Shown here piece by piece: positions 4,000 to 55,741 of a stretch of 64,000 nt of DNA. Where the stretch lies: positions 6,263 through 70,262 of IMG/VR virus record IMGVR_UViG_3300047476_000779; one strand, given 5' to 3'. Every line of letters starts with the position of its first letter. Within the stretch, counting starts at the first letter, position 1. A program made the translations under genes and the position numbers. This DNA is from a virus. Under the pieces are notes generated by a model. That model was given only the letters and a program-made list of their open reading frames with translations. It did not search any database and had not been told where the DNA came from.

Positions 4000-4020
4000 A
4001 GCCCCGAAAGGGGCTTTTTT
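4000..4020 (+). terminator. rho-independent terminator
   Basis: agcccc-gaaa-ggggct hairpin followed by a run of six T residues, directly after the stop at 3996. Confidence 0.7.
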
Positions 4021-4156
4021 AATGGACACAATAAATACAGAAAGGAGATAATTATGAGTTGGTATAGACACAGACCCCCAAAGAATCCTCCACATCACCC
4101 GGAACCTGTACAGGAAAACAAGACTCCTTCGAAGTGATACTGATAAATACAGTATC

Positions 4157-6067
4157 ATGAATTTGCGAGAACTCGATTCCTTTAAACTTTCCGACGCCGT
4201 TACTTTCCATAACAATCTGAACCCTAAGTTATGGAATGGCACACACCTCCGACCAGAGGTTAGAAAACAACTAATAACAATAGCACAAGATTTTTTATCT
4301 GAATTAGGTATCCACGACCTAGATGTAAAAGACATAACAGTTTCCGGCAGCAATGCAGCATACAGCTACACAAAGCACTCAGACTTAGACTTACACATTT
4401 TAGTAGACCTCAGCGAATTAGATAATGATGAAGTTTACAAAGAACTATTCAACGCTAAAAAGACAATTTATAACGACAGCCACGACATAACGATTCATGG
4501 GGTACCAGTAGAACTATACGTACAAGACGCCAGAGAACCAGTCATCAGTCTAGGTGAGTACAGTATATTGAATAACGAATGGCTTAGAATCCCCACTAAG
4601 CGCAGAGCAAACTTTGACCAAAATTCAAGTAGAGCAAAATACGAAAAACTATTAGATATCATCAATCAGGCACTAAGATCCACTAGCTTAGAAAAAGTCA
4701 CCAAGACACTAAAGAAGATTAGACAATATAGACAAGCAGGTCTAGACAAAGGTGGTGAGTTTGGTCCTGAAAATTTAGCATACAAAGCATTACGTAGTCG
4801 TGGATACATAACAAAGCTATATGATTTACGAGACAAGTTACATAGTCAAGAATTGACCGTAGAGACAATGTACAAACAAAAACTAGACAAACCTACATTC
4901 GGTGTACGTGAACTAGTTAAGATGCACAACGTATCATTGGATCACATATTAACACAGTTAATTCAAGGAATTAATGTAGAATCTGAACATACTAGCAACG
5001 AAGATTTAGCTAGAGAGATCGCATTAGATCATTTAAAAGAAGATCCTAATTATTACTCTAAATTAAAAAAAGCAGAATTAGAAGAAGAAAAAGAAAGTTT
5101 ACCAGCTAAAGTTTATCATGTAACTCCAGCTGTTAATGTCCCTACTATTATGTCTCGTGGATTAATACCACAAGTTGGTGATCGTTCTAACAAGATACAA
5201 GGTGAAACTCCTGCGGTATATTGCTTCCCTGACACTAATTCACTAGAAGATGCTATGATGAATTGGTTGGGTGACGAATTTGGTGAAGATGAAGATTTAG
5301 CTTTACTAGAGATAAGCACAAGTGGATTAGAAGGGGATGTAACACCTAATGCCGAATACGAAATACAGATTTTTGACCCTGTCCCTCCGCAAAACATCAA
5401 AGTGTTGTCTCAGAATTTAGCAACAATGGTACTAGAATCAGTCAACGAGAGTTTCGACCAACCCTACAAACTTAAATGGGAAAAGAGTGATTATGGTGAC
5501 ATTGACGCAATAGCAAAAATGGACGATGGTAACCATCTAAGTATCATGTTCAACAAAGGATACAACCAAGACAACGAAGAAGCATGGAGTGTTGAATTCT
5601 TTAGAAACAATAGCCAAGAAGTTACAGGTGAAGGTGACGCACAAAGAGTGTTTGCTACTGTGTTAGGGGCTATACAAACGTTCATTAAGAAATACAAACC
5701 AAATAGAATTATCTTTTCAGCAAGCAAGGATAACTGGGCAAAACAACAACAGAATAGCGAAAGCCGAGCATCATTGTATGATAGGTTAGTTCAGCGTTAT
5801 AGCAAAGCATGGGGATTCAGAGCGTTCCGTGCCGATGCAGGCGACAAGGTTATCTATGAATTAAGTAGAATAAAACCCATTGCTAAACCGGTAGCAGAAG
5901 CAAGTGGCTATATCCCATCTGAAAAAGAGAAAAACGATCCACGTTTCAAGACAGCATTAACAGTGGATGTTAAGCCTGACAGTATCAAAAAGAATGCAAA
6001 ATCCTTCTACTGGAAGACTAGTAGAGCAGGCATTCCTCCAACAGCGAACCCTAACGGCAAATTCTGA
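4157..6067 (+). CDS. large protein with pol-beta-like NTase motif and C-terminal ADP-ribosyltransferase-like R/STS/ExE motifs (Alt/Mod-like?)
   Basis: GSNAAYSYTKHSDLDLHILVD fits the GS...DxD nucleotidyltransferase pattern. The C-terminal half has SRGL (Arg), LLEISTSGLEG (STS) and AEYEIQ (ExE), as in R-S-E ADP-ribosyltransferases. Confidence 0.4.
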   Translation: MNLRELDSFKLSDAVTFHNNLNPKLWNGTHLRPEVRKQLITIAQDFLSELGIHDLDVKDITVSGSNAAYSYTKHSDLDLHILVDLSELDNDEVYKELFNAKKTIYNDSHDITIHGVPVELYVQDAREPVISLGEYSILNNEWLRIPTKRRANFDQNSSRAKYEKLLDIINQALRSTSLEKVTKTLKKIRQYRQAGLDKGGEFGPENLAYKALRSRGYITKLYDLRDKLHSQELTVETMYKQKLDKPTFGVRELVKMHNVSLDHILTQLIQGINVESEHTSNEDLAREIALDHLKEDPNYYSKLKKAELEEEKESLPAKVYHVTPAVNVPTIMSRGLIPQVGDRSNKIQGETPAVYCFPDTNSLEDAMMNWLGDEFGEDEDLALLEISTSGLEGDVTPNAEYEIQIFDPVPPQNIKVLSQNLATMVLESVNESFDQPYKLKWEKSDYGDIDAIAKMDDGNHLSIMFNKGYNQDNEEAWSVEFFRNNSQEVTGEGDAQRVFATVLGAIQTFIKKYKPNRIIFSASKDNWAKQQQNSESRASLYDRLVQRYSKAWGFRAFRADAGDKVIYELSRIKPIAKPVAEASGYIPSEKEKNDPRFKTALTVDVKPDSIKKNAKSFYWKTSRAGIPPTANPNGKF

Positions 6068-6111
6068 TTACATAGTATTTTGATAAATACTATATCAATT
6101 TGGAATTCCGT

Positions 6112-6828
6112 ATGAAAATCAATCAAATCATTGTAGAAACCTCAACAACAGCAGGTTCTATCTCTACTGTATCAATGCCATTGGGCGAAGTACAGAAACG
6201 CAATCCTATTAAAACAGTTAGCAAAAAGGGCCCTTATGCCAATAGTCTAAGTGAGGGCGCAGTAAAACAACTATCAATGGACCTTAAAGGTGGTAAAGAC
6301 GGTCTAAATGACGAAGAATTCAAAAAGAAGTACGGCAAGACTAAACAAGAAGTTCGTGCTGAAATGAAGAAACAACCCGAGAAGCAAGAACCAGTTAAAG
6401 AAGATAAACTAGACGAAGAAGATAAAATTATCGCTGTTGGCAAAGGTAGCAAACTAAAGACTGGTCTACACGGTAAAAATGAAGAACCAAAGTTCAAAAA
6501 TTTTGTACCCCCATTCAAAGCAGAAGGCTTGTATGTAAGTGATAAACGCGGTAAAAATGTCTGTGAATGTAGTGAACAAATGTTAGCACCATTAGTTGCT
6601 AAAGCATTAAATGCGTTTGTTGCTACAAATGAATCTATCGACATTGAAGGCGCTGGCGTTGTTGCTGGTGGAGCCCAGTATGAAGGTGCTAAAGTAGATC
6701 GTATGGTTAAACACATTGCTAAGAGTGAAAAGAAGTTAGGTCACTCTAAGAAAGAAGCAGAGAACATTGCGTGGGCAACAGCTAACAAGCGTGGCATGCT
6801 AGACAACAAGAACAAGAAAGCAAAATAA
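6112..6828 (+). CDS. Lys-rich basic protein with CTS-like N-terminus (internal-protein-like)
   Basis: Starts MKINQIIVE|T, resembling the T4 IP capsid-targeting sequence MKTYQEFIAE. Highly basic, Lys-rich composition. The ORF track starts it at TTG 6100. Confidence 0.5.
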   Translation: MKINQIIVETSTTAGSISTVSMPLGEVQKRNPIKTVSKKGPYANSLSEGAVKQLSMDLKGGKDGLNDEEFKKKYGKTKQEVRAEMKKQPEKQEPVKEDKLDEEDKIIAVGKGSKLKTGLHGKNEEPKFKNFVPPFKAEGLYVSDKRGKNVCECSEQMLAPLVAKALNAFVATNESIDIEGAGVVAGGAQYEGAKVDRMVKHIAKSEKKLGHSKKEAENIAWATANKRGMLDNKNKKAK

Positions 6829-6830
6829 TC

Positions 6831-9503
6831 ATGAGTAAAATTTTAAAAGGTTTAGACGAAGCGTACGGACGTTATGGCCGTAGAGATGCTTATCAACGTG
6901 ACTATGATGCTAGCGTTGCGGGTATGAATAAGCGTGACAGTTACGCATATCAAATGGATGGCGGCGCAAACGATGAAGGTTGGGATGAACCTCAACGTGA
7001 TTATACACCTAAACCAGTTGCGAGAAAAGGTATGTATTTCTACAATGTACCGGCCGGTCAGGATTCTAAAGCACAAGAAGTAGGATTGTTTAGAACAAAG
7101 TCAGGCAAGTGGTATAGCCCCTTTCAAAACACACGTGCTGACATGTTCTTTGGTAAAGGCAGATACTGGGAGCCAAAGACTAATGAATCTCAATTAGATG
7201 AACTGAGCAACGACACCCTTGCAAGCTACAAAAAGAAAGCCGGTGCTGACGCATCAGCCGCTGACAAAGCAGGTGACTATAAGCGTGGTGACAAGCGTTT
7301 CAGTGGCATTGTAAAAGCAACTAAGAAACAGTTTGATAACGATAGTAAAGGTGTGGTGGAAGCTAGCCCAGACGCAACGTTCAATGTTCTTAAAGGATTA
7401 AAGAGCTATCAAGTTGTTATTATGAACAACTACTACAGAGGCAAGTATAGTGACTATAGCGGTCGTTACTATTATGTGTTAGCAACAAGCCCAGAAGAAG
7501 CCAAGCAAGTTGTGTTAGATAACGCTGATGCTATCTTACAAGACTTGTTGGCAATGAAGGCACACAATGGTAGAAGAATATTGCCACGTAGTAGTGCCGT
7601 TCCTATTACTCCAGATCGTATCGGTAAGATTGAAGATGGTACAGTTGCTGGTCGCATGAGTACTACAAGCTATAAAAAGATGTACAGCCCAAATGGCCCT
7701 ATGATGGTTAAACTATCTAACGGTGCTATTGAAGATGTACAAGGTCAAGAGCAAAATGTATCTGAAGAAACGATTCACGTAGGTTATCGTGATTCAAGTG
7801 GCGATTGGATCAAAACCACTACGCATACTAACTATGCCGATGCTAAAGCCGCAATGGAAAGATTAGTAAAGAGAGGCAAGAAGGGTGTTCAGCATCGCTA
7901 CGACAATAAGGGCAATATTGACCCGGGTGCTATGATGACTGCGAGACCTGATTCAGGGGTAGCGGAAGACACGGTAAACGAATCTTCTACTATTGATTTT
8001 ATTAGAGGGTTGATTAGTGAGTTCAACACACAAATGAGTGGTAGCCCATACTATCCAATGGATTATAAAAATCCTGGTATGAGAATGTGGACTCGTGGTG
8101 ACGGCTCACGATACAAAGATCCTGGATACATTTTCATTGATCGTGACTTAAAACCAGAAGATCAGCCTAAATGGCACAAGGCTAAAGCAGTTGAAAAGTT
8201 TTGGAAGTTCCTAGAATCTAAAGGTGCTCGTAAGATTGGCGATGTTTCTGGTGAATTTGGGTCCGATCCGCATAGTCCGGCAGTAGTATTGAACAAGCAA
8301 GTATTTGTATTCAACGGTCGTAGCATTGCTTGGGGATCAACTAGTAGACTAAAGAACTCCAGTGTTTGGCGTCAAAAACAACAAGGTGTGGCGGAAGGTT
8401 GGGACCCTGACACGACTAGACTTGAGCAAGATGTTAGAGATGCGTTAGATAACGGTGACGATTACACAGCAAAACAATATGCTAAAATGGCACCGACACC
8501 AGAAGCCAAGAAATATTTGCTAAACATCATCAAGCAAGCAATGTATATTGATGATTTAGGTGGCGAAATTGATTGGAAAGGTGTGTCGGAAGCAGGCAAC
8601 AAACCTGTTGAAAAATACCGTTTAGGAATGGGCGATAATCGCACAGCAAGAGAACTAAAAACTCAAATGCAAGGTGCCAGTGATGAGTTTGTCAATTGGG
8701 CTGCAAAGGATGTTGGACCTTTCCACTCTAGAGTGGCCAAGATGCAGGGCAAACTTGCCAAGAGCGAACTACGCCGCCGTGCAGCCGACCATGATAGATT
8801 AGCAACAGGTACTAACGAAGGTGTGGCGGAAGGCGAAAAGAATCCGCATACTAGCGCATTAGGTAAAGCATTGTATCGTGACCTAAGCAAAGAGAAGAAA
8901 GCAAGTCCACAACAAGTTCAGCGCAACAAAGAGCGTTGGGCAAAGCGTCAGGCTGATATGGTAGGAGATCCTGCTCCACAACATTATCGTGACCAATTGG
9001 CTAAAGATGCCGCCGAGTATAAAAAAGGTGTATCAGAAGGCGAACTTGCTACATACTTGGTAAGTGTTATGGACTCTGCTACTGGCGAGCACTGGCGCAT
9101 TGAAGTCAAAGTCACAAGCCCCGAAATGGCCAAAGAACGAGCAGAAGCAATGGGCTATAAAGTATTAGGCGTTAAAGAAAAGCCTGGTGTGGCGGAAGGC
9201 TCATCTACAATGTGGGAAGTTAGTTTTGATTACGGCCCTCATCAGGCAGACTCAGTAAAGGTCAAGGCCGGTTCAGAAGAAGAAGCCATTGCCAAAGTAG
9301 AGAAGGCGGCAGAGAAAAGAGGCCGAGACATAATGATTAACTGGGCAAGACCAGCAGAGCAAGATGTGGCGGAAGAAAAGCAACGTCTAGATGCCAAGTG
9401 CTGGAAGGGCTATAAAAAGCAAGGCACTAAGATGAAGGGTGATACAAGAGTTAATAACTGTGTTCCTGTAAAAGAATCAGCTATTATGAAGGGTCTTAAA
9501 TAA
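6831..9503 (+). CDS. 890-aa polyprotein-like structural/internal protein with repeated GVAEG motifs
   Basis: Five or more occurrences of G-V-A/S-E-G/D. A repeated ~40-aa module (VLATSPEEAKQVV / VTSPEMAKERAEAMGYKV / GSEEEAIAKVEKAAEKRG). Confidence 0.5.
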   Translation: MSKILKGLDEAYGRYGRRDAYQRDYDASVAGMNKRDSYAYQMDGGANDEGWDEPQRDYTPKPVARKGMYFYNVPAGQDSKAQEVGLFRTKSGKWYSPFQNTRADMFFGKGRYWEPKTNESQLDELSNDTLASYKKKAGADASAADKAGDYKRGDKRFSGIVKATKKQFDNDSKGVVEASPDATFNVLKGLKSYQVVIMNNYYRGKYSDYSGRYYYVLATSPEEAKQVVLDNADAILQDLLAMKAHNGRRILPRSSAVPITPDRIGKIEDGTVAGRMSTTSYKKMYSPNGPMMVKLSNGAIEDVQGQEQNVSEETIHVGYRDSSGDWIKTTTHTNYADAKAAMERLVKRGKKGVQHRYDNKGNIDPGAMMTARPDSGVAEDTVNESSTIDFIRGLISEFNTQMSGSPYYPMDYKNPGMRMWTRGDGSRYKDPGYIFIDRDLKPEDQPKWHKAKAVEKFWKFLESKGARKIGDVSGEFGSDPHSPAVVLNKQVFVFNGRSIAWGSTSRLKNSSVWRQKQQGVAEGWDPDTTRLEQDVRDALDNGDDYTAKQYAKMAPTPEAKKYLLNIIKQAMYIDDLGGEIDWKGVSEAGNKPVEKYRLGMGDNRTARELKTQMQGASDEFVNWAAKDVGPFHSRVAKMQGKLAKSELRRRAADHDRLATGTNEGVAEGEKNPHTSALGKALYRDLSKEKKASPQQVQRNKERWAKRQADMVGDPAPQHYRDQLAKDAAEYKKGVSEGELATYLVSVMDSATGEHWRIEVKVTSPEMAKERAEAMGYKVLGVKEKPGVAEGSSTMWEVSFDYGPHQADSVKVKAGSEEEAIAKVEKAAEKRGRDIMINWARPAEQDVAEEKQRLDAKCWKGYKKQGTKMKGDTRVNNCVPVKESAIMKGLK

Positions 9504-9943
9504 TGTTATCAGATAATTTAAAAGTGTTATTAGCGAGTACTCAGTCATTCGCTATCAAGTCACAAAACTTTCACTGGAACGTTGAAGGTAGTAACTTCCC
9601 ACAGTATCACGAATTCTTTGATACATTGTACGGTGATGTAAGTGGTACAATTGACCGTATCGCTGAATACATCAGAATTTTAGGTCACTACACCCCTGGT
9701 AGTTTAACACGTTATGCTGAACTATCTATCATTCAAGATCAAACAAAGATTCCACGTGCTGAATTAATGTTTGCTGAATCATTACAAGACTGCGAAACAA
9801 TGAGTCAATTAGTAACAGCAATGTTTGATGAAGCCGCAAATGAAAATCAACATGGTATAGAAAACTACATGGCTGAACTACAAGACTTGTACGGCAAGAA
9901 AGCATGGTTCATTCGTTCTATACTAAAGAAAGAACGTGAATGA
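9503..9943 (+). CDS. dps: Dps-like ferritin-superfamily protein
   Basis: NFHWNVEGSNFPQYHEFFDTLYGDVSGTIDRIAEYIRILG matches the Dps di-iron/DNA-binding ferritin signature (HWNV.G..F..H..F). Confidence 0.7.
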   Translation: MLSDNLKVLLASTQSFAIKSQNFHWNVEGSNFPQYHEFFDTLYGDVSGTIDRIAEYIRILGHYTPGSLTRYAELSIIQDQTKIPRAELMFAESLQDCETMSQLVTAMFDEAANENQHGIENYMAELQDLYGKKAWFIRSILKKERE

Positions 9944-11487
9944 GAGCAAATGAGTTCCTACTTGAGTTTGAACTACCCAAGAATCGTTGGGAACTCATAG
10001 TGTCAAATGATGACAAACAAGAACTAGGCACTGACCTGGTTAGCCTCGTTCGTCAAGCATATTCTAGTACACCCCAAGGCAGTTTTGTTAACTCAATAAA
10101 AGATGTTATTCCTAGTGATTGGAATGTAATCGACTGGGATAAAGATCCTGATGTTGACAGTTGTGTGTTCTATCGTAAGAACAGGGGTAATGAAAATTGG
10201 CAAGGATACAAGATACAAGGTCTAGGTCATGACGGTACTAGAACAAGTAAAGACAAAGCACTAAATAAGATATCTAGTTTGTTACTTAGAGACGGTGTTT
10301 GGATTGAATCAAGCGATGCTATGCGTCATATTTTATTGAAACTTAATCTAGCACCTATAAAAGATGAACAATTCCTACAGCAATTATTCAATGACCCTAA
10401 TTTGAGAATGATTAGCAATGATACATATGTTCGTGTGTTAGCTGATGGAACTAAAGTAACTGAAACAGTATTTGGAAATCCTAAACTTATGAGAGCTAAT
10501 GAATTTGTAAAAGAAGAAGCTAAAGCAATCAAGACTAAAGGCTTAACCATGAAGTACGCATTCAACGACCGTGCGTTAATCATGAAAGCCTTCGAGCCTA
10601 GCACTAATAATCCATTAGCGTATGTTAAGTTCGTTAAAGAGAAGAAAGAATTGTATCCTCAGGATCTTTGGGTCAATGATGAGTATCGTAATAAAGGCAT
10701 CGCAAAGACAATGTACGATTCGTTAAAGAATGACGGATATGTTATCAATAGAAGTCATGACCAGACTAAAGCAGGCGCCGGCTTCTGGGATAAGCATCGT
10801 GGTGAAGATGCTTATGTTTGGGAACAGACAGAGATGATTGACGAGATGCCTCTTCCGGCTGATTGGGATCCTCAGCAAATGCGTCAAGGCGCAACTACAT
10901 TTAAATCAAGACTACAGTATGCGTTAGATAGAGCAAAGAAACTAGGCACTGGTTCTAGTCGTGTTGCTACTACAATTGAATATCAAGGTCGTCCTACTGT
11001 ATTGAAGATTGCTAAAAACCAAAAAGGTTTAGCACAAAATAGTGTAGAAGCTGATATTCTTAGCGATGGATACGCAAGTCAATTAGGTATTCTTATTCCA
11101 TTGATTGACTATGACGAACAGAATCGTGAACCAAGTTGGATTCACACCGAAATAGCACAGAAAGCAAATGAAAAACAATTATGTTCTTTGTTAAAATGTC
11201 CTAATCTAAGTTTCTTAGTTAACTTTGCTACTTCTATTACAGGTAAGAAAAGATTTTTAGGGTTACCCCAAGGTTACATTGATAAACTAAAAGAAAGTGG
11301 CATGAGTGACGAAGATGTTGAAACATGCACAGACTACGCCAACACATTAGCTGATTTGAATAGCAACTTTGATGTTGAGCTAGGTGATTTTTCTAGGGCC
11401 GCAAACTGGGGTTTGTACAATGGCAAGCCAGTAATAGTTGATGTTGGGTTCAACAGCAATGTTTTAAATCAGTATTATAAAAGATGA
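9940..11487 (+). CDS. CTS-bearing composite protein (duplicated CTS; GNAT-like and kinase-like segments)
   Basis: N-terminus MRANEFLLE. The motif recurs internally (KLMRANEFVKEE at ~aa 186). VNDEYRNKGIAKTMY is GNAT-like. The C-terminus has VLKIAK ... DFSRAANWG ... VDVGF, which is kinase-like. Confidence 0.5.
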   Translation: MRANEFLLEFELPKNRWELIVSNDDKQELGTDLVSLVRQAYSSTPQGSFVNSIKDVIPSDWNVIDWDKDPDVDSCVFYRKNRGNENWQGYKIQGLGHDGTRTSKDKALNKISSLLLRDGVWIESSDAMRHILLKLNLAPIKDEQFLQQLFNDPNLRMISNDTYVRVLADGTKVTETVFGNPKLMRANEFVKEEAKAIKTKGLTMKYAFNDRALIMKAFEPSTNNPLAYVKFVKEKKELYPQDLWVNDEYRNKGIAKTMYDSLKNDGYVINRSHDQTKAGAGFWDKHRGEDAYVWEQTEMIDEMPLPADWDPQQMRQGATTFKSRLQYALDRAKKLGTGSSRVATTIEYQGRPTVLKIAKNQKGLAQNSVEADILSDGYASQLGILIPLIDYDEQNREPSWIHTEIAQKANEKQLCSLLKCPNLSFLVNFATSITGKKRFLGLPQGYIDKLKESGMSDEDVETCTDYANTLADLNSNFDVELGDFSRAANWGLYNGKPVIVDVGFNSNVLNQYYKR

Positions 11488-12608
11488 GAGCCACAGAATT
11501 CATAACAGAACTCTTTAAGCCAGGTAAAGATTGGCAATGGGAGTTTCGCGGCAGTGAAGAAGCGTTCGCTAGTTTCAAAGTAGGTGATATTGAATATCTA
11601 TGGTCAGCTAGTGTACAAAATCAGAATGATCCTACTCAGTGGACATTAACATTTAGACAACGTGGTCAAGATGAGCAAGATAAAATGTTTGGTATGACAG
11701 GTACTGGTAATTCATCAGAAGTCATATCAACTGTAGTAGATATCACTAGAGAGTTTTTAAAACAATACGGTGATAAAGTATTAGAAATCAAGTTTTCATC
11801 AGCGGGTGATTCACGCACAAGTCTGTATGCTAAGATGGTAAAACGTTTATTGCCTGATTGGGACATGAGCAAAAGAGATGCAGGAGATGAATCTAGATTC
11901 CTGTTAATCAACCCAAGAGCGTATGAGTTAGGTGAAGATATGAGTCGCCGAGGCTTCTTGGGTGCGTTAGGTGGTATGGCAGCTGCCGCTGCCGGTGTTG
12001 ATGCCGAAGCAGGTACAAAGAAGCCCAAAATTAAATCACCTTCGCAACAAACTATTCAACAAGCTAAAAAACTTCAAGCTACTAAGGCAGCTAGTCCTAC
12101 TAAAGATCCTCAAGCAGAAGCAATGTTATATAGAACTGCCAAAGCTAGTGGAATGAAGGGTAGCGAGTTAGCACAGTTTCTAGCACAAACGAAACATGAA
12201 TCATGGGATCATAGTAGATTACAAGAGAAACCAGTGGGTGATCCTAACAAATATTTCACTAAGAAATATGATCCAACGTTAGCACCAAAGACTGCTAAGA
12301 TTCTTGGCAACAAACTTAGAGGCGACGGTGCCAAATATTATGGTAGAGGATTCATACAGTTGACGGGTAGAGATAACTATCAACGAGCTAGTGAAGCACT
12401 AGGATTAGACTTGATAAATCGTCCTGACTTAGCGAGTAAACCAGAGATAGCTGCCAAGATCGCAGTATGGTATTGGAACACTAGAGTTAAACCAAAAGTC
12501 CAAAATTTCGATGATACTGTGGCAGTGACAAAAACAATCAACAACGCAATGTTTGGTTTAGAAGACCGACTAGCAAATTTTATAGATTATAAAAAGAGAG
12601 TAGCATGA
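11484..12608 (+). CDS. CTS-bearing GH19 (chitinase-like) lysozyme-domain protein with internal Tat motif
   Basis: N-terminus MRATEFITE. The C-terminal domain has FLAQTKHES ... YYGRGFIQLTGRDNY ... AVWYWNT, the GH19 catalytic signature. Internal SRRGFLGALGGMAAAAAGVDA at aa 153 is preceded by an SD-like GGTGA. Confidence 0.75.
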   Translation: MRATEFITELFKPGKDWQWEFRGSEEAFASFKVGDIEYLWSASVQNQNDPTQWTLTFRQRGQDEQDKMFGMTGTGNSSEVISTVVDITREFLKQYGDKVLEIKFSSAGDSRTSLYAKMVKRLLPDWDMSKRDAGDESRFLLINPRAYELGEDMSRRGFLGALGGMAAAAAGVDAEAGTKKPKIKSPSQQTIQQAKKLQATKAASPTKDPQAEAMLYRTAKASGMKGSELAQFLAQTKHESWDHSRLQEKPVGDPNKYFTKKYDPTLAPKTAKILGNKLRGDGAKYYGRGFIQLTGRDNYQRASEALGLDLINRPDLASKPEIAAKIAVWYWNTRVKPKVQNFDDTVAVTKTINNAMFGLEDRLANFIDYKKRVA

Positions 12609-13042
12609 AAAAGATTATAACAACATTATTAGTAGCATTATCCGTTACAGCATACGCACAAAAGCAACCACAGGGTGTTACTTATGATGCGAACATATTG
12701 AAAGTAAATGACGGTGATACTGTAGTAATTGCGGCACCTTTCTTACCACAACCATTAAAACCACAACTAGCAGTTAGAATATTTGGTGTTGACACCCCTG
12801 AGAAAGGCTTTAGAGCTAAATGCCCTAGCGAGGACGCACGTGGACAGGCCGCGACAGAATTCACTAAGAAACTAGTAGGAGCAAGTCAAAAGCGTCAAGT
12901 CACACTATACGATTGGGACAAGTTCGGTGGCCGTGTTTTGGGTGACATTATCTTAGATGGTAAAAGTTTAAGACAGCAATTGATTGCTAACGGTTTCGCC
13001 CGTGAATACTTCGGTGAAGCAAAACAATCTTGGTGTAACTAA
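12605..13042 (+). CDS. secreted SNase/thermonuclease-like nuclease
   Basis: Sec signal peptide MKKIITTLLVALSVTAYAQ, followed by the SNase fold motifs VNDGDTVV ... RIFGVDTPE ... KFGGRVLGDI. Confidence 0.7.
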   Translation: MKKIITTLLVALSVTAYAQKQPQGVTYDANILKVNDGDTVVIAAPFLPQPLKPQLAVRIFGVDTPEKGFRAKCPSEDARGQAATEFTKKLVGASQKRQVTLYDWDKFGGRVLGDIILDGKSLRQQLIANGFAREYFGEAKQSWCN

Positions 13043-13078
13043 TTATACCTTACAACGGTCAGTTAATAAATAAACTTT

Positions 13079-13537
13079 ATGACAACCGACAAAGTAACTA
13101 AATTAGGTAATATCATTGGAGCAAACTCTAGTGATGTTACATTGAGCAAAATTAAAGATTTATTTGGTTTATCTCAATGTGAAGATAAACTTATTATACA
13201 GAAACCAAATGATGTTTCCACGCTAGCACAATCAGACCTTTCATCATATAACCCCGAAGCCAAGTATCTAGTAATGAGAATTCAAATTGATCTTACTAAT
13301 TGGGAGATTGGTCATTTCTCTAGCTATGACGATTATCAACACACTAATTGGAAAACAGGGGACGTTACAATATACGATTGGCAATCAACTAGTGTTTGTT
13401 CAGCCAATGCTAGTAACAACAACAGAGTCATGTATCAGTTAACTGGAGTAGTAACTGAAAAAACGAACGAATTTATCAACAGATTAAAAAGATTTGGTAG
13501 TCATCAGTTGGAGTTGACTGACAATTCTTGGTTCTGA
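13079..13537 (+). CDS. hypothetical protein
   Basis: 152-aa ORF with no recognisable motif. Confidence 0.5.
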   Translation: MTTDKVTKLGNIIGANSSDVTLSKIKDLFGLSQCEDKLIIQKPNDVSTLAQSDLSSYNPEAKYLVMRIQIDLTNWEIGHFSSYDDYQHTNWKTGDVTIYDWQSTSVCSANASNNNRVMYQLTGVVTEKTNEFINRLKRFGSHQLELTDNSWF

Positions 13538-13651
13538 ACCCACCTTAGGGCCCGTTGTCGTAACGGTTAGAGCGTAAGCTCAGGCGTCCGCGCAATTGAA
13601 CTGCACCGCGTAGTGTGCCCCGTATAAAGTAAGCGGGATGATAAATACATA

Positions 13652-14227
13652 ATGCGCTTCAAACAAATATTATCAGAATCAGCAACAAGTGAATTAGCAA
13701 ACAAATTGCCTTCGCTTGAAAAGCACGACTATAATACAATTGACCAGCTTATGCGTAAAATAGCAGGTAAGCATAAAATTACCGGAAAAGCATTACATGA
13801 CTTGTTTGTTAAAAAGTTTGGTGATACTCCTGATAGTTGGATTAAAAACAAACTAGACGAAGCGCCAGAAGATTCAGATTTACACAAAGAAGTAGAACAA
13901 TTTACGCAATGGGCTGCCAAAAAGTTAAATGTTAAAAAAATTCCTAAATTTGATTTAAGTACTGACACCCGTGATGCTCAAGACAATCATCATACCGGTA
14001 GTCATCAGATGGGCGGAGATACTGTTTGGGTGTATGTCAAGAACCGTAATTTAGTAGACATTCTACGAACCGTATTCCATGAATTAGTTCATGTACGTCA
14101 AGATGAATTGGGAATGATTGAACCGGGCGACAGTTATCCCGGTAGCCCAATCGAAGCAATGGCAGACATGTTAGCTGGAAAGTATATTAAAATATACGGT
14201 GAAGCTAACCATCACATCTTTCAATAA
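13652..14227 (+). CDS. CTS-bearing HExxH zinc-metalloprotease-like protein
   Basis: N-terminus MRFKQILSE. VFHELVHVRQDE contains the HExxH zincin motif. Confidence 0.5.
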   Translation: MRFKQILSESATSELANKLPSLEKHDYNTIDQLMRKIAGKHKITGKALHDLFVKKFGDTPDSWIKNKLDEAPEDSDLHKEVEQFTQWAAKKLNVKKIPKFDLSTDTRDAQDNHHTGSHQMGGDTVWVYVKNRNLVDILRTVFHELVHVRQDELGMIEPGDSYPGSPIEAMADMLAGKYIKIYGEANHHIFQ

Positions 14228-14902: not shown

Positions 14903-15169
14903 ATGTCAGATTACAACCGCACATTCAATAACGAAGCTAAAATTAAATTAACTCAATTAGTCAATGAAGGTATGACAACATTACACGAGATTGACGCACT
15001 TAATGGTGGTCTAAACGATACCATTAAGGCTGTAGCAGAGGAATTAGAAATTAAGGCTTCTACACTAAAGAAAGCAATTAAGATTGCGCACAAAGCAAGT
15101 CTCGGTCAGACTAACAAAGACCATGATGAATTGAACACAATTCTAGAAACAGTAGGAAAAACCCTTTAA
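14903..15169 (+). CDS. hypothetical protein
   Basis: 88-aa ORF with RBS AAGGAGAA. Confidence 0.5.
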   Translation: MSDYNRTFNNEAKIKLTQLVNEGMTTLHEIDALNGGLNDTIKAVAEELEIKASTLKKAIKIAHKASLGQTNKDHDELNTILETVGKTL

Positions 15170-17877
15170 TGTCATATGTTGACGCAATACACAGTAGAGA
15201 TGAGGATCGCATTTTCGTTGTAGAACGTGATGCGAACGGTAAGCGCCAATATAAAGAATTCTCTACTAATTACGTATTCTACTATCCAGATGCGAAGGGT
15301 AAGCAACGTAGTATCTTTAACGAACCTGTAAGTCGTTTTAGTACACGTAAGCGTACAGAGTTCGAAAAAGAAAAGCGAATTCATAGTGGTAAAAAACTAT
15401 ATGAGAGTGACGTTAACGTAGTGTTCCGTTGCTTGAGTGAAAACTACTTAGGTGTTGAACCTCCTAAACTTCACACTTGCTTCTTTGACATTGAGGTAGA
15501 CTTTGATCCTGTTAAGGGCTTTAGTCCTACGTCAGATCCATTCAACCCTGTTACAGCTATCAGTTGTTATCTTGACTGGATGGATACTTGTTTCACATTA
15601 GTCATTGCTCCCAAGCACATGACCAAAGAAACAGCAAAAGAAATCATCGGTGAGTTTGAGAACACACTTCTTTTCGACAATGAAAAGGAAATGTTTGATG
15701 TATTCTTTCAACTAATCGAAGATGCTGACGTACTAACTGGTTGGAACTCAGAGGGCTATGACATACCCTACATGGTCAATCGTGTTACACGTGTAATGAG
15801 TAAGGATGATACTCGCAAGTTTTGCTTGATGGGTCAACTTCCTAAGCCAAGAGAGTACGAACGATTCGGTAAGACAGAAACAACATACGACTTGATTGGT
15901 CGTATTCACCTCGACTACTTGCAACTTTACAAAAAGTATAACTATGAATCTCGTCATAGTTACAAACTTGATGCTATCGGTGAGATGGAAGTCGGTGAGA
16001 ACAAAACTCAGTATGAAGGTACTCTTGACCAATTGTATAACAAAGACTTTAAAAAGTTTATTGAATACAACAGACAAGATACTATGTTGTTGGTCAAGAT
16101 CCACAACAAGTTGAAATTCCTTGATCTAGCGAATGCGCTAGCACACGAGAATACAGTGTTACTGCCCACTGTTATGGGTTCAGTTGCTATGATTGAAATG
16201 GCAATCATGAACGAAGCCCATGAAAGAGGCATGGTAGTTCCTGATAAAAAACGAAAGACTGATAATGATGATGAAATCCAACAAGCGGCAGGTGCCTATG
16301 TTGCTACTCCCAAAAGAGGCTTACACGAATGGGTCGGTGCGGTGGACATCAACTCACTCTACCCCTCAGCAATCAGAGCACTCAACATGGCACCGGAGAC
16401 CATTGTTGCTCAGGTCAGACAGACCCTCACAGACCAGTACATGAAAGAGAAGGGTGCTAAACTCGCCCGTGAAAAGAAGTACTATAAAGAAGGTGACGAT
16501 GATGTGACCGGCGCCATTCTATGGGAAGGTTTGTTTGGTGCGTTAGAGTACACAGCAATCATGAACCAAGAACGTGGCACTATCTTAACTGTTGACTATG
16601 AAGATGGTCGAAGTGTAGAAATGTCTGCGGCAGAAATCTGGAAATTAGTATTTGATAGTCACAAGCCATGGATGCTAAGTGCGAACGGTACAATCTTTAC
16701 GTATGAGAAAGAGGGTGTGATTCCCGGTCTACTCACACGTTGGTACAGTGAACGTAAGAGTATTCAGAAAGAAGCAAAAGCCGCGTATGGTACAGACATG
16801 TACGAATACTATGATAAGCGACAACTTGTTAGAAAGATTTTGCTTAACTCTGCGTATGGCGCACTATTGAATGAACACTGCCGTTTCTATGATAAGCGTA
16901 TTGGTCAATCGGTAACTCTATCAGGTCGTCAGATTGTCAAACATATGATGAGTGTTATTAACGAAACAGTTGAGGGTGTATATTCACACGAAGGAAACGC
17001 AATTGTTTATGGTGATACTGACTCATGCTATTTTACTGCCTACACAACACTTAAAAAGCAAATTGAAGATGGTGAGCTAGAATGGGATAAAGAAACTTGT
17101 ATTGGTTTATATGATGGAATCGCGGATCAAGCGAACCAATCATTCCCTGCATTCTTAGAACGTGCGTTCCATGCTCCTCGCAAGAATGGTGAGATTATCA
17201 AAGCTGGTCGTGAACTGATTGGTGATCGTAGTATCTTCATCACTAAAAAGCGTTATGCTATCAACATATTTGACAAAGAAGGTAAGCGTAAAGACAAAGA
17301 CGGGCAACTAGGTGATATCAAAGCTATGGGTCTTGACTTGAAACGTGCTGATACTCCTAAATACGTACAAGAGTTCTTAATGGACGTATTGGGTATGGTT
17401 CTTCAACATGGTAAACAGCGTGAAGATATCATTGAACGTGTGAAAGAGTTCAAGCGTGTCATGGTAGCACAAGACAGTTGGACTAAAGGGTCTCCTAAGT
17501 CAGTTAATAACTTGACTAAGCACACTATTGCGTTTGAAAAGACTGGTAAGTGTGGTGTTGGACATGCTAGAGCCGCAATCAATTGGAACTATCTACGTAG
17601 AATGAACAGTGACAACTATTCAATGCAGATCGTAGATGGTATGAAAATTGTAGTGTGTAAGTTGAAGCCTAACCCATTAGGATTCAATAGTATCGCATAC
17701 CCAGTAGATGAACTTAGGCTACCGCAGTGGTTCAAAGAATTACCATTCGATGATGCTGAAATGGAAAAGACATTAGTTGACGAAAAAATCGACAACTTAT
17801 TGGGTGTACTTGATTGGGATATCAAGAGCAACATTGATGTTAAATCTACATTTGACGATTTGTTCTCATTTGGTTAA
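15169..17877 (+). CDS. family B DNA polymerase (T4 gp43-like) with 3'-5' exonuclease domain
   Basis: Exo I FFDIEVDF. Pol motif A VDINSLYPSAI. Motif B KILLNSAYG. Motif C YGDTDSCYF. Confidence 0.95.
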   Translation: MSYVDAIHSRDEDRIFVVERDANGKRQYKEFSTNYVFYYPDAKGKQRSIFNEPVSRFSTRKRTEFEKEKRIHSGKKLYESDVNVVFRCLSENYLGVEPPKLHTCFFDIEVDFDPVKGFSPTSDPFNPVTAISCYLDWMDTCFTLVIAPKHMTKETAKEIIGEFENTLLFDNEKEMFDVFFQLIEDADVLTGWNSEGYDIPYMVNRVTRVMSKDDTRKFCLMGQLPKPREYERFGKTETTYDLIGRIHLDYLQLYKKYNYESRHSYKLDAIGEMEVGENKTQYEGTLDQLYNKDFKKFIEYNRQDTMLLVKIHNKLKFLDLANALAHENTVLLPTVMGSVAMIEMAIMNEAHERGMVVPDKKRKTDNDDEIQQAAGAYVATPKRGLHEWVGAVDINSLYPSAIRALNMAPETIVAQVRQTLTDQYMKEKGAKLAREKKYYKEGDDDVTGAILWEGLFGALEYTAIMNQERGTILTVDYEDGRSVEMSAAEIWKLVFDSHKPWMLSANGTIFTYEKEGVIPGLLTRWYSERKSIQKEAKAAYGTDMYEYYDKRQLVRKILLNSAYGALLNEHCRFYDKRIGQSVTLSGRQIVKHMMSVINETVEGVYSHEGNAIVYGDTDSCYFTAYTTLKKQIEDGELEWDKETCIGLYDGIADQANQSFPAFLERAFHAPRKNGEIIKAGRELIGDRSIFITKKRYAINIFDKEGKRKDKDGQLGDIKAMGLDLKRADTPKYVQEFLMDVLGMVLQHGKQREDIIERVKEFKRVMVAQDSWTKGSPKSVNNLTKHTIAFEKTGKCGVGHARAAINWNYLRRMNSDNYSMQIVDGMKIVVCKLKPNPLGFNSIAYPVDELRLPQWFKELPFDDAEMEKTLVDEKIDNLLGVLDWDIKSNIDVKSTFDDLFSFG

Positions 17878-31323: not shown

Positions 31324-32144
31324 AAAAAATCTTAATTACAGGAAACAGCGGATACATCGGTAGTCATTTGACTAAGATGTTAAAAGATGAATATATTATT
31401 CATGGCATGGATATGAATCAACCACAGATTCAACCAGTTACTCATCATTATAATGACATTCGCAAGCCTATTGATATAGCAGAAGAATATGATTGTGTCA
31501 TTCATTTGGCTGCTTTAGTTAATGTAGGTGAAAGTGAACAGATCCCTATTCAATACTACATTACTAATTTAAATGGTACAATGAATGTATTGAACAAGAT
31601 CAAGACTAAGAATTTTGTCTTTGCGAGTACAGGTGCCGCAGTAGGTTGTGAAAGTGCTTATGGTATTAGTAAACGTGCCGCCGAAGATGTAGTATGTGAA
31701 TATTGTACCGCGCACAATCCAAAAGACTATACAATCTTTAGGTTCTACAATGTGATTGGTAGTGATGGATTCGCTCCAACTAATCCCGATGGATTAATGT
31801 ATAACTTATTGAAAGCTAAAGAATCAGGTGAGTTTACTATCTTTGGTAAAGACTATGATGTAAGTCCTGACGGAACATGTATTCGTGATTATGTTCACGT
31901 AAATGAGATTTGTGATGCTTTAAAGCAAGCGATTGAAAAGCCAAGTTACAAGGTAGAATCATTGGGACATGGTGTAGGTTATACTGTTCGTGAGATTGTT
32001 AGTATGTTTCAGAACGTAAATGATACAGACTTTGATGTAAAATACGGCCCAAGAAGAAAGGGCGACCTTGCTAGTAGTGTACTAGAAGATGTGTCGCCCT
32101 ATATGCGTAACTTGTATACGATGGAACAGTTGTTAAAAGTTTAA
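31320..32144 (+). CDS. NAD-dependent sugar epimerase/dehydratase (extended SDR)
   Basis: ILITGNSGYIGSHL is a Rossmann GxxGxxG. YGISK is the catalytic YxxxK. Confidence 0.7.
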   Translation: MKKILITGNSGYIGSHLTKMLKDEYIIHGMDMNQPQIQPVTHHYNDIRKPIDIAEEYDCVIHLAALVNVGESEQIPIQYYITNLNGTMNVLNKIKTKNFVFASTGAAVGCESAYGISKRAAEDVVCEYCTAHNPKDYTIFRFYNVIGSDGFAPTNPDGLMYNLLKAKESGEFTIFGKDYDVSPDGTCIRDYVHVNEICDALKQAIEKPSYKVESLGHGVGYTVREIVSMFQNVNDTDFDVKYGPRRKGDLASSVLEDVSPYMRNLYTMEQLLKV

Positions 32145-32800
32145 CTTCCCCAACCTGCGAAGAACGGATCACTGATAACAATCTCTCCGTCACTTCCTAA
32201 CATGAAGTTACCACTGTGTAGGTCTAGATTTCCTAGACCTATTTTTCTAGCTACTTTCTTCAAGTCAGTGATTGTATCCCATAGTTTATTGAAACCATCT
32301 TCACCAACTAGTGTCATAAGTTTATTGAAGTTGTCTGTGTTTTGCTGACCCCAACTCCTATTCTCATAGCCCTTCATGAAGTCTTGTTTTTGTTTTGGGC
32401 TATTACCGCGCTCTGCTTTATCAGCAAGATGTGATAACACATAATTCATGCCACTAGCACCTTTTGTGAAAGGGAACAATCTTTCCATCTTAATTTGTAG
32501 ATAAGGTTTTCCCTTATAGTGGAATAGATTCCAGTCACTAAACTGAGGCAAGAAAGGGTTGTCACTATTTGCCTTGCAATAGTCTGCGTATGCTTTGAAT
32601 GTCTTTTGTGATCTTGTTAATTGAATGCTACCTTGTTTGGCGCGACTACTAGTACCAAAGATTTTCAGTATCATACCATCAGGGGCTAAGTAAGCAGTTT
32701 GGTCAACGCCACTGCCTAATTTTTTATAGCCCTTTTGCCTAAGGATGCCATCGATACTTCTATCTGTGTATGCTTCTGATAAAAATTCTTCTGCTCTCAT
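32141..32800 (-). CDS. CTS-bearing protein kinase-like protein
   Basis: N-terminus MRAEEFLSE. GSGVDQTAYLAPDGMILKIF (Gly-loop + K), LDLHSGNFML (catalytic-loop-like D..N) and ISDPFFAG (DFG-like). Confidence 0.5.
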   Translation of the reverse strand: MRAEEFLSEAYTDRSIDGILRQKGYKKLGSGVDQTAYLAPDGMILKIFGTSSRAKQGSIQLTRSQKTFKAYADYCKANSDNPFLPQFSDWNLFHYKGKPYLQIKMERLFPFTKGASGMNYVLSHLADKAERGNSPKQKQDFMKGYENRSWGQQNTDNFNKLMTLVGEDGFNKLWDTITDLKKVARKIGLGNLDLHSGNFMLGSDGEIVISDPFFAGWGS

Positions 32801-32801
32801 T

Positions 32802-34253
32802 TTAGTGCTTCAATAATAATGTGCTTAATACGCCATGACTCTTAGCTGTAATGTCCGGCTCACCTGGGGTGATGATAACATTATATTTAACAGGGGTTTC
32901 TTTTTTGCCGCCGTCAGTTTTTTGATCCCACTCGTTATAAGACAATATAGAGTTGGCGCTGATACCGTACTCTTTTGCTATTCTTTGTTTTAGTTCAGGT
33001 AACTTGTCGGGTATCACTTGCCATTGACCTTCTGCTCCCTTAACTAAGTTCTTCTTCTCATCCTTCACTAATAAGTCATAGAATATATCAGTGGGAACAA
33101 TTCTACTATTCTTTGTCTGTTCTAAACTTGGATCAGCGGCCTTAACTTTTTTCTCTTGTGAAGTGTGAGCACCTTCACTCCAGTTAATAATAAAGTTGTT
33201 TGGCTTAGCACCAACAGCAACATCACCCATCTTTGTGTAAGCGTAGAACTGTACATTAGGATGTGCTTTTGCTAGTTTAAAAGCCATGTCAACATATTCA
33301 GGACTGAAGAAATCACCAGCATCGTGCCAGCGAATAGTTACTTTGTAACCACCCTTCTGACCGGCTTTTTCTTCTTTAGTAATTTCTGCGCTTAATTGAT
33401 TGAAGAAACCTGTTGGATCATTTAATAGATATGTTAGAATACGACCGTCACTTTGCCAAGCATTCTTAAACTGAACTTTACCGCCCTTCATAGCAAAGCA
33501 ATCGACTTTACATGAACCAGCACCTGGACATGTATTAACAATGATAAGTTTGTTCGTTTGTTCGTCAACAGCAATACCAGTCAATGCGGCGAAACCAATG
33601 TTGAAGAACTGTTCTAGTTCTCCATTACTGTGCTTCATCTTTTCGTTTTGCTTCAATAGTGCTTTTGGACGCTGTGATAGAGTTTTCTTAACTAATTCTT
33701 CATCGTATGTTTGACCATCAGGACCTAAATATTCAATGACACTTGAACGGTGAATGTATGGCATCTTGTACTTGTCTGTCTTTGTTTTGCCGGACACATA
33801 CTTTTCAATACCCTTCTTGTCGGTTTTAACATTACCTTGTTTATCTAAATCAGGTGTACCTACAATTCGTTTCATATAGTCTTGAAACTCATCGCCACCA
33901 AATTCACGTGACTGTGCCGGCAATGCTGTGGCTTCATCTAAACCAGATAGTTTACGAATTCTTTCTAGATGTTCCTTACTTTCATTAGCTGCATCTTTAA
34001 AGTTTTTAGCAGTAGGTGCTCCCTTGCTCCCCGGTTCACGCATCTTTTCACCGGATCCATGCTTAATTCGTTCACGTTTAGCATGTATATTTGCCCATAA
34101 ACCCTTGCCTTCTTCGGCAACTTGTTCATCTGATTCTTCACCGGGCATATCACCTGCTTTAGCAACGAATTGCTGAGGTGTCATAATTTGGATACCTTGC
34201 GGTGCTCCGGGCATTTTTGGCTCTGCGCCTTCGAATAATTCTTTAAAATTCAT
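32802..34253 (-). CDS. large hypothetical protein with CTS-like N-terminus
   Basis: 483 aa. N-terminus MNFKELFE|G. Confidence 0.5.
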   Translation of the reverse strand: MNFKELFEGAEPKMPGAPQGIQIMTPQQFVAKAGDMPGEESDEQVAEEGKGLWANIHAKRERIKHGSGEKMREPGSKGAPTAKNFKDAANESKEHLERIRKLSGLDEATALPAQSREFGGDEFQDYMKRIVGTPDLDKQGNVKTDKKGIEKYVSGKTKTDKYKMPYIHRSSVIEYLGPDGQTYDEELVKKTLSQRPKALLKQNEKMKHSNGELEQFFNIGFAALTGIAVDEQTNKLIIVNTCPGAGSCKVDCFAMKGGKVQFKNAWQSDGRILTYLLNDPTGFFNQLSAEITKEEKAGQKGGYKVTIRWHDAGDFFSPEYVDMAFKLAKAHPNVQFYAYTKMGDVAVGAKPNNFIINWSEGAHTSQEKKVKAADPSLEQTKNSRIVPTDIFYDLLVKDEKKNLVKGAEGQWQVIPDKLPELKQRIAKEYGISANSILSYNEWDQKTDGGKKETPVKYNVIITPGEPDITAKSHGVLSTLLLKH

Positions 34254-34300: not shown

Positions 34301-34330
34301 ATATCTATTATTTATCACTTTGGTCTATCT

Positions 34331-55722: not shown

Positions 55723-55741
55723 AATTCACTTGGATAATAAC

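Follow-up and report, generated by a model that had tools for sequence, protein, structure and literature searches.

The stretch of DNA analysed here, referred to as the window, comprises 64,000 nucleotides (64 kb) of the IMG/VR virus record IMGVR_UViG_3300047476_000779 (positions 6,263 to 70,262) and is a fragment of the genome of an uncultured jumbo phage. The analysis concerned a short N-terminal leader carried by several of the proteins encoded in the window. A preliminary description of the same DNA had singled out seven N-termini as similar to the capsid-targeting sequence (CTS) of phage T4, all of them ending in [LIV]-x-E, and both the seven N-termini and their common ending were confirmed. 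On the plus strand, MKINQIIVE (6112-6138) opens a 238-amino acid (aa) Lys-rich basic protein (6112-6828), MRANEFLLE (9940-9966) precedes module A of a 515-aa three-module protein (9940-11487), MRATEFITE (11484-11510) is followed by a DUF6934/GNAT-like module in a 374-aa protein (11484-12608), and MRFKQILSE (13652-13678) starts a 191-aa protein (13652-14227). On the minus strand, MRAEEFLSE (32774-32800) begins a 219-aa protein (32141-32800), MNFKELFE/G begins a 483-aa protein with a GP88 domain, PF17338 (32802-34253), and a 12-aa leader (58717-58752) is found on a 367-aa protein of phrog_12709 (57649-58752); here and below a slash marks the predicted cleavage site. Two more open reading frames (ORFs) of the plus strand showed leader-like starts, namely a 636-aa multi-module protein (4157-6067), beginning with MNLRE/L and thus with L-x-E, and an 890-aa protein (6831-9503), beginning with MSKILKGLDE/A.

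The cargo assignments proposed in the preliminary description were then evaluated. The Lys-rich basic protein (17% Lys, pI 9.5) and the GH19 lysozyme domain of the 374-aa protein (PF00182, E 1.4e-16) were verified, and the kinase-like nature of the 219-aa protein received moderate support from its match to phrog_15752, a T7 0.7-type kinase family (E 1.2e-11). The GNAT/kinase-like composite described for the 515-aa protein was weakly supported, the GNAT match being sub-threshold only (E 0.003) and the C-terminal kinase similarity weak: the AlphaFold2 (AF2) model of module C returned a predicted local distance difference test (pLDDT) value of 65, and its top Foldseek matches, the IRAK4 and Bud32 kinases, had E > 0.1. 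In the 191-aa protein the HExxH motif occurs at aa 143, but no family match was obtained and the protease label is weak. The DUF6934-like module was modelled with a pLDDT of 77 and its best Foldseek matches were acetyltransferases (probability <=0.91, E >= 0.02), weakly suggesting a GNAT-like fold. Sequence searches of the PDB with modules C and D and with the 219-aa protein gave no match, an NCBIfam scan returned nothing useful, and tblastn found no match to the 219-aa protein in cultured phages.

In order to evaluate the leader on a statistical basis, the strict expression M[RK]..[EQ][FIL][LIVFT].E was run on the six-frame translation of the window. Six matches were obtained: five at start codons, belonging to ORFs of 191-515 aa (6112, 9940, 11484, 13652 and, on the minus strand, 32800), and one internal, MRANEFVKE at 10489, located at a domain junction within the 515-aa ORF. 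The amino-acid composition of the window predicts 0.018 strict starts among its 98 ORFs, resulting in P(>=5) = 1.3e-11, and no strict leader start was present among the replication and metabolic genes of the window that were examined (DNA polymerase, ligase, rIIA/B, ClpX and glycosyltransferases). The leader observation is genuine and lies far outside what chance would produce.

A set of relatives was collected by searching IMG/VR with the 515-aa ORF, which returned 42 loci (L010-L051) totalling 686 kb and 929 ORFs. The pattern was found 83 times in these loci and was N-terminal in 82 of the 83 matches; the corresponding counts were 13 in 1898 ORFs of head-module loci and 2 in 212 ORFs of genome slices from cultured phages, both used as controls. 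A database search with the C-terminal module returned 475 homologues, and 85 of the 107 listed Met-starting sequences carried the strict leader. The alignment of N-termini across related phages, suggested earlier as a check, showed that positions 1-9 are conserved and that conservation is lost from position 10 onward. Among 82 distinct leader proteins, Met at position 1 was followed by Arg (59) or Lys (23), Ala (50), a variable residue, Glu (69) or Gln (13), Phe (55) or Ile (22), Ile (42) or Leu (30), a second variable residue and Glu; position 7 was Ile, Leu or Val in 78/82 proteins and position 9 was Glu in 79/82. The less canonical leaders were also retained, as the orthologues of the 238-aa protein in relatives keep MKINQII.E and those of the 191-aa protein keep their leader, followed by 'S..TELAK.LPSL'. 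Position 10, the first residue after the predicted cut, was Leu or Phe, the residues of ClpS N-degrons, in 16/82 cargos, and the phage encodes ClpS; an excess of Leu and Phe over background was not clear.

Once the first ten residues had been removed, the cargos of the 82 proteins fell into at least 19 groups without any BLAST link. Some leader proteins do share modules, as would happen if the leader had spread by duplication of a single family; however, the unlinked cargo groups, together with the P value of about 1e-11, effectively refuted both paralogy and chance similarity, to which we assign a negligible probability. One cargo, moreover, has homologues without a leader in other phages: in KVP40-like phages, Stenotrophomonas phage Moby and cyanophage S-8S55 the homologues of the 367-aa protein lack it, and their alignment begins at about residues 25-33 of the window protein. 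Synonymous codons were found to vary at the conserved positions (GCA, GCC, GCT and GCG for Ala; AGA, CGT, CGA and CGC for Arg; GAA and GAG for Glu; TTT and TTC for Phe). The constraint therefore acts on the peptide and not on DNA or RNA, and a DNA-level signal as the basis of the shared leader was ruled out. These sequence comparisons support the view of a modular tag, maintained at the peptide level and common to unrelated proteins.

The same type of site was found inside the proteins. The modules of the cluster, A (FELPKNRWEL..), B (GNAT), C (MPLPADWD..), D/H (DUF6934-like, LFKPGKDW.. or SFDQPYKL..) and E (SRRGFLG.. plus GH19), occur among the relatives in other combinations or as separate genes, and all three modules of the 515-aa protein exist there as separate leader-bearing genes. 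A module placed first in a protein begins directly behind the leader Glu, and internal modules are each preceded by [LIVM]-x-E, the exception being IDD/VNLPKD in L049. Thus the 515-aa ORF contains a second leader, MRANEFVKE (10489-10515), followed by the GNAT-like module, and the junction ..TEMIDE/MPLPADWD at about 10837, followed by module C, which is possibly kinase-like. The 374-aa ORF shows AYELGE/DMSRRGFLGALGG at about 11934 (AYELGE/DMSRRGFLG), before a twin-arginine-signal-like segment and the GH19 muramidase, and the 636-aa protein, arranged as a phrog_36119 N-terminal domain (weak nucleotidyltransferase match), DUF5661, a DUF6934-like module and a conserved tail, carries SVNE/SFDQPYKL directly before its DUF6934-like module at aa ~431. 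Other junctions read EEKLDE/LFQPG, EENLTE/LFQQG, ECLTE/LFEPG, ENKINE/LFDP, DLTE/SFDQPY, SIAE/GFDQPY, ENKLSE/EAK and GGSLTE/FQLTKN, and [ILV]-x-E stands directly before MPLPxDWD in 109/109 database homologues with the PLPxDWD motif. At the pre-GNAT junction, where the window keeps the intact leader MRANEFVKE/EAK, two relatives show Met-less fossil leaders at aa ~184-192, RRANEFVSE/EAK (L015 8061-9062) and VRANESVHE/EAK (L043 10001-10954). The occurrence of fossil and intact leaders at one junction indicates that separate leader-bearing genes were fused and that P3 and P1 were kept. Cleavage behind [L/I]-x-E is the specificity of gp21, the T4 prohead protease.

A second kind of putative site characterizes the 890-aa ORF, in which G-V-[A/S]-E linkers recur six times (aa 376, 519, 584, 664, 733 and 786), whereas 0.115 would be expected and no more than 2 were obtained in any of 2000 shuffles; the entire window holds seven such motifs. 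The preliminary description had noted neither these linkers nor the internal leader copy at 10489, the leader-like starts at 4157 and 6831 and the [LIVM]-x-E ahead of internal modules. The linkers delimit segments of about 50-140 aa in the C-terminal half of the protein, which is probably, judging from this arrangement, a polyprotein with modules mostly of unassigned function.

These junctions bear on the possibility that the shared N-terminus has no proteolytic role and is instead an oligomerisation or partner-binding helix, an expression or translation-initiation feature, or the boundary of a recombination cassette. Residues 3-10 are helical in the AF2 model of the DUF6934-like module, the module shuffling is extreme at exactly these boundaries, and in T-even phages the conserved DNA coding for the CTS has been proposed to mediate cassette exchange. 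However, the synonymous codon diversity speaks against a signal at the DNA or RNA level, the internal junctions hold only P3 and P1 while the remainder decays (RRANEFVSE, VRANESVHE, EEKLDE), a pattern that a protease site would leave but a binding helix would not, and the GV[A/S]E linkers of the 890-aa protein are unrelated to any helix at the start of a domain. We consider a non-proteolytic element quite unlikely.

The GH19 protein provided a further case. Its twin-arginine (Tat)-like segment, DMSRRGFLGALGGMAAAAAGVDAEA (11934-12010, aa ~151-175 of the 374-aa ORF), is located ahead of the GH19 domain; the motif SRRGFLGALGGMAAAAAGVDAEA is internal in the window protein (aa ~153) and directly follows the leader in relatives. 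The SRRGFLG segment was always found directly after a predicted [LIV]-x-E, also in L012 (10969), L016 (3540), L036 (9321) and L020 (7485), so that cleavage would generate a proper N-terminal Tat-type signal. This arrangement is what would be expected if leader and junctions were processing signals only, a gp21-type protease or the HExxH protein (13652) maturing proproteins and polyproteins without capsid loading; cutting might for instance occur in the cytoplasm or after export, the Tat signal of the GH19 muramidase being unmasked to time lysis. For polyvalent proteins, autoprocessing by their peptidase domains has been proposed, either ahead of delivery or following it (PMC5512222). In stand-alone genes SRRGFLGALGG begins exactly behind the leader Glu, in the window fusion behind LGE; the HExxH protein belongs to the cluster, and the adjacent staphylococcal nuclease (SNase)-like protein, with its signal peptide, would be exported too. 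In T4, however, gp21-type proteases work inside proheads, the conserved MRAxEF upstream of P3-P1 exceeds what a cleavage site needs, proteins of head gene clusters share leader-like N-termini (see below), and the HExxH protein lacks family support as a peptidase. On balance, processing without capsid loading appears unlikely.

The preliminary description had proposed locating the prohead protease gene as a check, and such genes were found in the genomes of relatives: gp21-type proteases are encoded by K64-1 and Vibrio phage 2.275.O, both related to the window phage through their DNA polymerase, and by Slickus01 and the KVP40-like phage VH7D, as identified by homology, and by XacN1 (ORF297), as identified by annotation. 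From these relatives we infer that the window's phage encodes a gp21-type protease as well.

Analogous leaders on the same cargo modules were detected in cultured phages. Alishewanella phage Slicko01 (141 kb) has nine leader genes (record positions 85888-91558 and 97101-97559), eight in a run and the ninth elsewhere, with the consensus MKI[D/E]xLYESxLxE; its homologue of module C reads MKIYNLYSTLLE/APLPDDWD, its DUF6934-like leader protein reads MKIDDLLENLLVE/SFDKGYQW, and a further leader protein contains an ART-PolyVal ADP-ribosyltransferase domain (PF18760, E 2e-11). Four paralogous Slicko01 leader proteins (L009 933-6603, corresponding to 85888-91558 of the record) share ISP[IV]V[YF]H[SA]T ... 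F[FY][LM]ST[AT]R[ST] ... E.EDR[IL], by eye an H/R-S-E signature resembling that of ADP-ribosyltransferases; they gave no Pfam match. ORF170 of Xanthomonas phage XacN1 reads MKQVRLSQFLSE/APLPDDWD, and the two DUF6934-like proteins KVP40.0115 and KVP40.0116 begin with MKFSEYQRINE/SLDRP.. and MKFSEYQNELTE/AFDRPAQ.., respectively. The DUF6934-like module is internal in phage nt-1, behind SSVNLTE/, and module A of a 634-kb uncultured phage is located behind MKHLKAFEEYE/F, next to genes starting with MKxLKxFE. The leader is thus constant within a genome, specific to the lineage and carried by interchangeable cargo, the pattern expected if it bound a phage-specific partner.

One alternative is that a phage Clp system (ClpX, ClpS, ClpB-like) reads the leader, which would serve as a recognition tag or degron that sets protein lifetime. 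Genes for ClpX, ClpS, a ClpB/A-type C-terminus and Hsp20 are present in the window and a Clp protease gene is present in XacN1, and the 16 cargos noted above would start with Leu or Phe after cleavage. This explanation is nevertheless very unlikely: to our knowledge the leader fits none of the N-terminal motifs of ClpX, no Clp genes were found in the parts of the Slicko01 and KVP40 genomes examined, where analogous leaders occur, Leu and Phe are not clearly enriched at P1', and the internal [LIVM]-x-E sites would be left unexplained.

Several observations connect the leader with head genes. A small protein whose gene lies between the portal and protease genes starts with M-[IRKLN]-[LF]-x-E-[LMIF]-[FLY] in 78 distinct related head clusters, examples being MKLFEMFD, MNLNEIYD, MILRELFY and MKAKELLLE; it corresponds to phrog_13986, a family without functional annotation, and by its position we take it to be a prohead-core protein. 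The same pattern fits two starts of the window, MNFKELFE (34253, minus strand) and MNLRELDSF (4157). At the equivalent head-cluster position, XacN1 ORF299 contains ..KFSEYLAE/S, close to YQEFIAE of T4, and the scaffold protein of Slickus01 starts with MKEDLKQLFESVVLNE, near that phage's MKIxxLYESxLxE leaders. Leader genes also adjoin head genes, following the major capsid protein (MCP) gene in L141 and preceding the portal gene in L157, L190, L199, L210 and L213, the portal-adjacent form being M[RK]IxE[IF]LxE/..EGP..NKIG. We take coliphage 121Q to be RaK2-like. Internal proteins embedded in its DNA ('bubblegram') have been reported (PMC7247149).

The expression of the leader genes was examined through their upstream sequences. 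An intrinsic-terminator-like hairpin on the plus strand (4000-4015), consisting of AGCCCCGAAAGGGGCT followed by a T run, closes the upstream unit, so that the leader cluster opens a new transcription unit. The motif GATAAATA, which resembles the T4 late promoter TATAAATA, occurs at eight sites in the window, and five of these are just upstream of leader genes or operons. On the plus strand they are located at 4142-4149, 7 nt before the 4157 ATG, at 6082-6089, 22 nt before the 6112 ATG, and at 13640-13647, 4 nt before the 13652 ATG; on the minus strand, 34309-34316 is upstream of the 34253/32800 operon and 58773-58780 is 20 nt upstream of the 58752 ATG, which indicates that this ATG, and not an upstream TTG, is the start. 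The remaining sites are at 978, 38816 and 54877. In the window and in L010-L051 the distance from GATAAATA to the ATG falls into two classes, 4-7 nt and 17-24 nt; if GATAAATA acts as a -10 element of T4 late type, sites of the shorter class would give leaderless or nearly leaderless mRNAs. Many other genes preceded by the motif in related loci have looser leader-like starts, and PHROG annotation of the other NATAAATA-preceded genes revealed no structural functions. In the complete genome of Slicko01, NATAAATA was found within 60 nt upstream of 21/199 ORFs, including those for MCP, scaffold, core, tail sheath and baseplate/tail proteins together with 4/9 leader genes (Fisher p = 0.008). Upstream of ORF300, a head gene, and of the portal gene, XacN1 carries TATAAATA and AATAAATA; GATAAATAC stands ahead of its ORF171-170 operon. 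These upstream motifs, which give a clearer picture in the two cultured phages than in the window's own clade, where they are ambiguous, make late expression of the window leader genes likely.

Taken together, MRAxEF[I/L]xE and its variants (MKINQIIxE, MNFKELFE and the 12-aa form) are, in our judgement, probably capsid-targeting and cleavage leaders of the T4 CTS type. According to this interpretation, the leader genes would be expressed together with the head genes and the amphipathic leader would dock the cargo on the scaffolding core of the assembling prohead. A gp21-type prohead protease would then cut behind the leader Glu and also at the [LIVM]-x-E and GV[A/S]E sites between modules, and the mature head would retain the free enzymes, i.e. 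GNAT-type acetyltransferases, kinase-like proteins, the GH19 muramidase, the Lys-rich protein of DNA-binding type and others, which would pass into the next host with the DNA. As to the head-packaged, injected set put forward in the preliminary description, the tag, its modularity and the cleavage-site pattern stand by comparison, while docking, cleavage, packaging and injection are steps that we infer from sequence. The proposal of an unusually large repertoire is plausible, since nine leader genes occur in Slicko01 (141 kb) against three internal proteins in T4, and the window covers 64 kb only. A more tentative extension, which we regard as possible and no better than that, is that leader and [LIVM]-x-E sites form a general cargo-cassette grammar in an abundant clade of uncultured jumbo phages, in which the 9-aa tag would bring any module into the prohead, the head protease would cut shuffled polyproteins within the capsid into many separate effectors, and the new N-termini, such as the Tat signal of the GH19 muramidase or Leu/Phe N-degrons recognized by the ClpS of the phage, would programme the location and lifetime of the injected proteins.

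A number of results weigh against the capsid-targeting interpretation. The leader cluster is surrounded by replication and metabolic genes and not by head genes, and neither the 64-kb window nor the same-clade contigs that were fetched contain head, scaffold, MCP or protease genes. Local tblastn searches with the K64-1 head proteins and T4 gp21 gave no match in the window and in the loci fetched by then, and two retrievals of head modules from IMG/VR, based on a protease alignment in one case and on a closer protease in the other, yielded 160 head loci, none of them on contigs with the leader cluster. As for expression, a sigma-70-like site (4023-4052) is also present upstream of the 4157 gene, GATAAATA precedes non-leader genes too (S21, Dps and a 67-aa ORF), and in the window clade the association of NATAAATA with strict leader genes was not significant (15/87 vs 108/901, p = 0.17). 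As for the sites, Val at P3 of the GVAE linkers is non-canonical when compared with Leu/Ile in T4, and, as residues 3-10 are helical in the AF2 model, [LIVM]-x-E may mark the point where a structural helix at the N-terminus ends. The GH19 enzyme, with its twin-arginine-like signal, has the look of an endolysin destined for export rather than of an injected protein. Finally, the XacN1 proteome is gel-band based and shallow, and its main text does not mention ORF170.

The T4 CTS, MKTYQEFIAE, is cleaved off in one step, and fusion to it leads to packaging and retention in the head, whatever the protein (PMC8442874); the internal proteins of T-even phages are diverse and have the CTS alone in common (PMC3012670). 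The resemblance of the window leaders to this sequence, noted in the preliminary description, was confirmed as a shared Met1, a basic residue 2 and a terminal EF[I/L]xE, in a peptide too short for a statistical test of homology. As with IPI, IPII, IPIII and Alt of T4, a short leader (9-12 aa) is found at the N-terminus of otherwise unrelated proteins of one phage, and it ends in the gp21-type [L/I]-x-E, EF[I/L]xE of the window being of the same type as EFIAE of T4. Relatives of the window phage encode gp21-type proteases as T4 does, and the cargo likewise comprises a Lys-rich basic protein and host-modifying enzymes, the Slicko01 ADP-ribosyltransferase recalling the packaged Alt (PMC5512222). 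In contrast with T4, the window leader has 9 aa instead of 10 and a consensus of its own, MRAxEF..E, and the window clade presents many more cargo groups (at least 19), most of them enzymes or multi-module fusions that carry internal sites. The phage also differs, being a jumbo phage the DNA polymerase of which groups with the RaK2/Atu_ph07 type. Phages of this type presumably fall outside the Straboviridae.

Similarities were also noted with the polyvalent proteins described by Iyer et al. 2017 (PMC5512222), which occur in phages and conjugative elements, combine disparate enzymatic domains in one polypeptide and have been predicted to accompany the DNA on delivery. Two or more disparate domains are present in the 515-aa (A, GNAT and C) and 374-aa (GNAT-like and GH19) proteins and also in the 636-aa and 890-aa proteins, and lysozyme, GNAT, ART and putative metallopeptidase domains recur in both systems, proteolytic domain release having been proposed for polyvalent proteins (PMC5512222). 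ART-PolyVal was found only in the leader cluster of Slicko01, no match to the MuF or MPTase families was obtained in the window, and a setting among head genes was observed in some relatives only. Unlike polyvalent proteins, the modules described here are small and each also exists as a stand-alone leader-bearing gene; the junctions are defined [LIVM]-x-E sites of head-protease type, in place of an embedded autopeptidase, and there are no MuF or portal fusions. The inner-body and ejection proteins of phiKZ and SPN3US are comparable in that many proteins are packaged, trimmed at x-x-E sites by a protease related to T4 gp21 and then ejected, but the protease motif is S/A/G-x-E, with small P3 residues instead of [LIVM], and in phiKZ, which belongs to an unrelated lineage, the propeptides are long and share no 9-aa tag. 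The Dar proteins of phage P1 and gp14-16 of T7 are head-internal proteins delivered with the DNA, with anti-restriction functions and, for T7 gp16, a peptidoglycan hydrolase, and differ from the proteins considered here in being incorporated without a short, cleavable, shared N-terminal tag.

CTS-directed packaging and the diversity of T-even internal proteins are textbook knowledge, and polyvalent injected proteins and processed ejection proteins of phiKZ type are also known. In the literature searched, no description was found of CTS-like leaders in jumbo phages of or near the RaK2 type, of a distinct 9-aa leader consensus in the abundant uncultured RaK2/Atu_ph07-related jumbo clade, of one leader on at least 19 cargo groups, mostly enzymes, of a conserved protease-site grammar between the modules of freely shuffled fusion proteins, or of cultured phages that place analogous, lineage-specific leaders on these cargo modules. 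Should the tag function as it does in T4, abundant environmental jumbo phages would deliver a dozen or more enzymes at DNA entry, among them acetyltransferases, kinase-like proteins, a muramidase and, in relatives, ADP-ribosyltransferases, thus providing a pre-made takeover and anti-defence kit far larger than the three internal proteins of T4. An N-terminal MRAxEF..E, or the leader proper to a given lineage, together with [LIVM]-x-E junctions would represent a sequence rule for predicting injected effectors in metagenomes, and the leader would be a natural portable tag to load foreign proteins into large capsids. The analogous leaders in three cultured phages (Slicko01/Slickus01, XacN1 and KVP40) make the idea directly testable.

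Finally, we considered the phage itself and the neighbouring genes. The B-family DNA polymerase of the window (15169-17877) shares 43-49% identity with those of Sinorhizobium phage Phosso, Agrobacterium phage Atu_ph07, Vibrio phage 2.275.O, Xanthomonas phage XaC1, Pectobacterium phage CBB and Klebsiella phages RaK2 and K64-1, and genes for rIIA/rIIB and for a DNA ligase of T4 type are present in the window as well. A near-identity DNA search gave no match to the window among cultured phages. Exact counterparts of the window proteins are confined to short metagenome contigs, and near-identical proteins also occur on 360-kb contigs such as IMGVR_UViG_3300043418_000114. Within the leader operon, two co-oriented plus-strand genes have no leader: one codes for a Dps/ferritin-like protein (9503-9943) and the other, the last gene of the operon, for the SNase-like protein (12605-13042), which carries a Sec or lipoprotein-type signal peptide, MKKIITTLLVALSVTAYAQ. 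Proteostasis and translation genes of the window comprise the C-terminus of a ClpA/B-type ATPase at its very start (2-271), ClpX (53723-54925), ribosomal protein S21 (54922-55140; PF01165, E 1e-15), Hsp20 (55215-55682) and ClpS (55730-56047). In the 483-aa protein, a segment at aa ~40-105 (33940-34135, minus strand) contains about 50 aa that are 60-74% identical to small podophage ORFs of phrog_16028, a very widely conserved segment found in podophages of Pelagibacter, Roseobacter, Synechococcus and Prochlorococcus.

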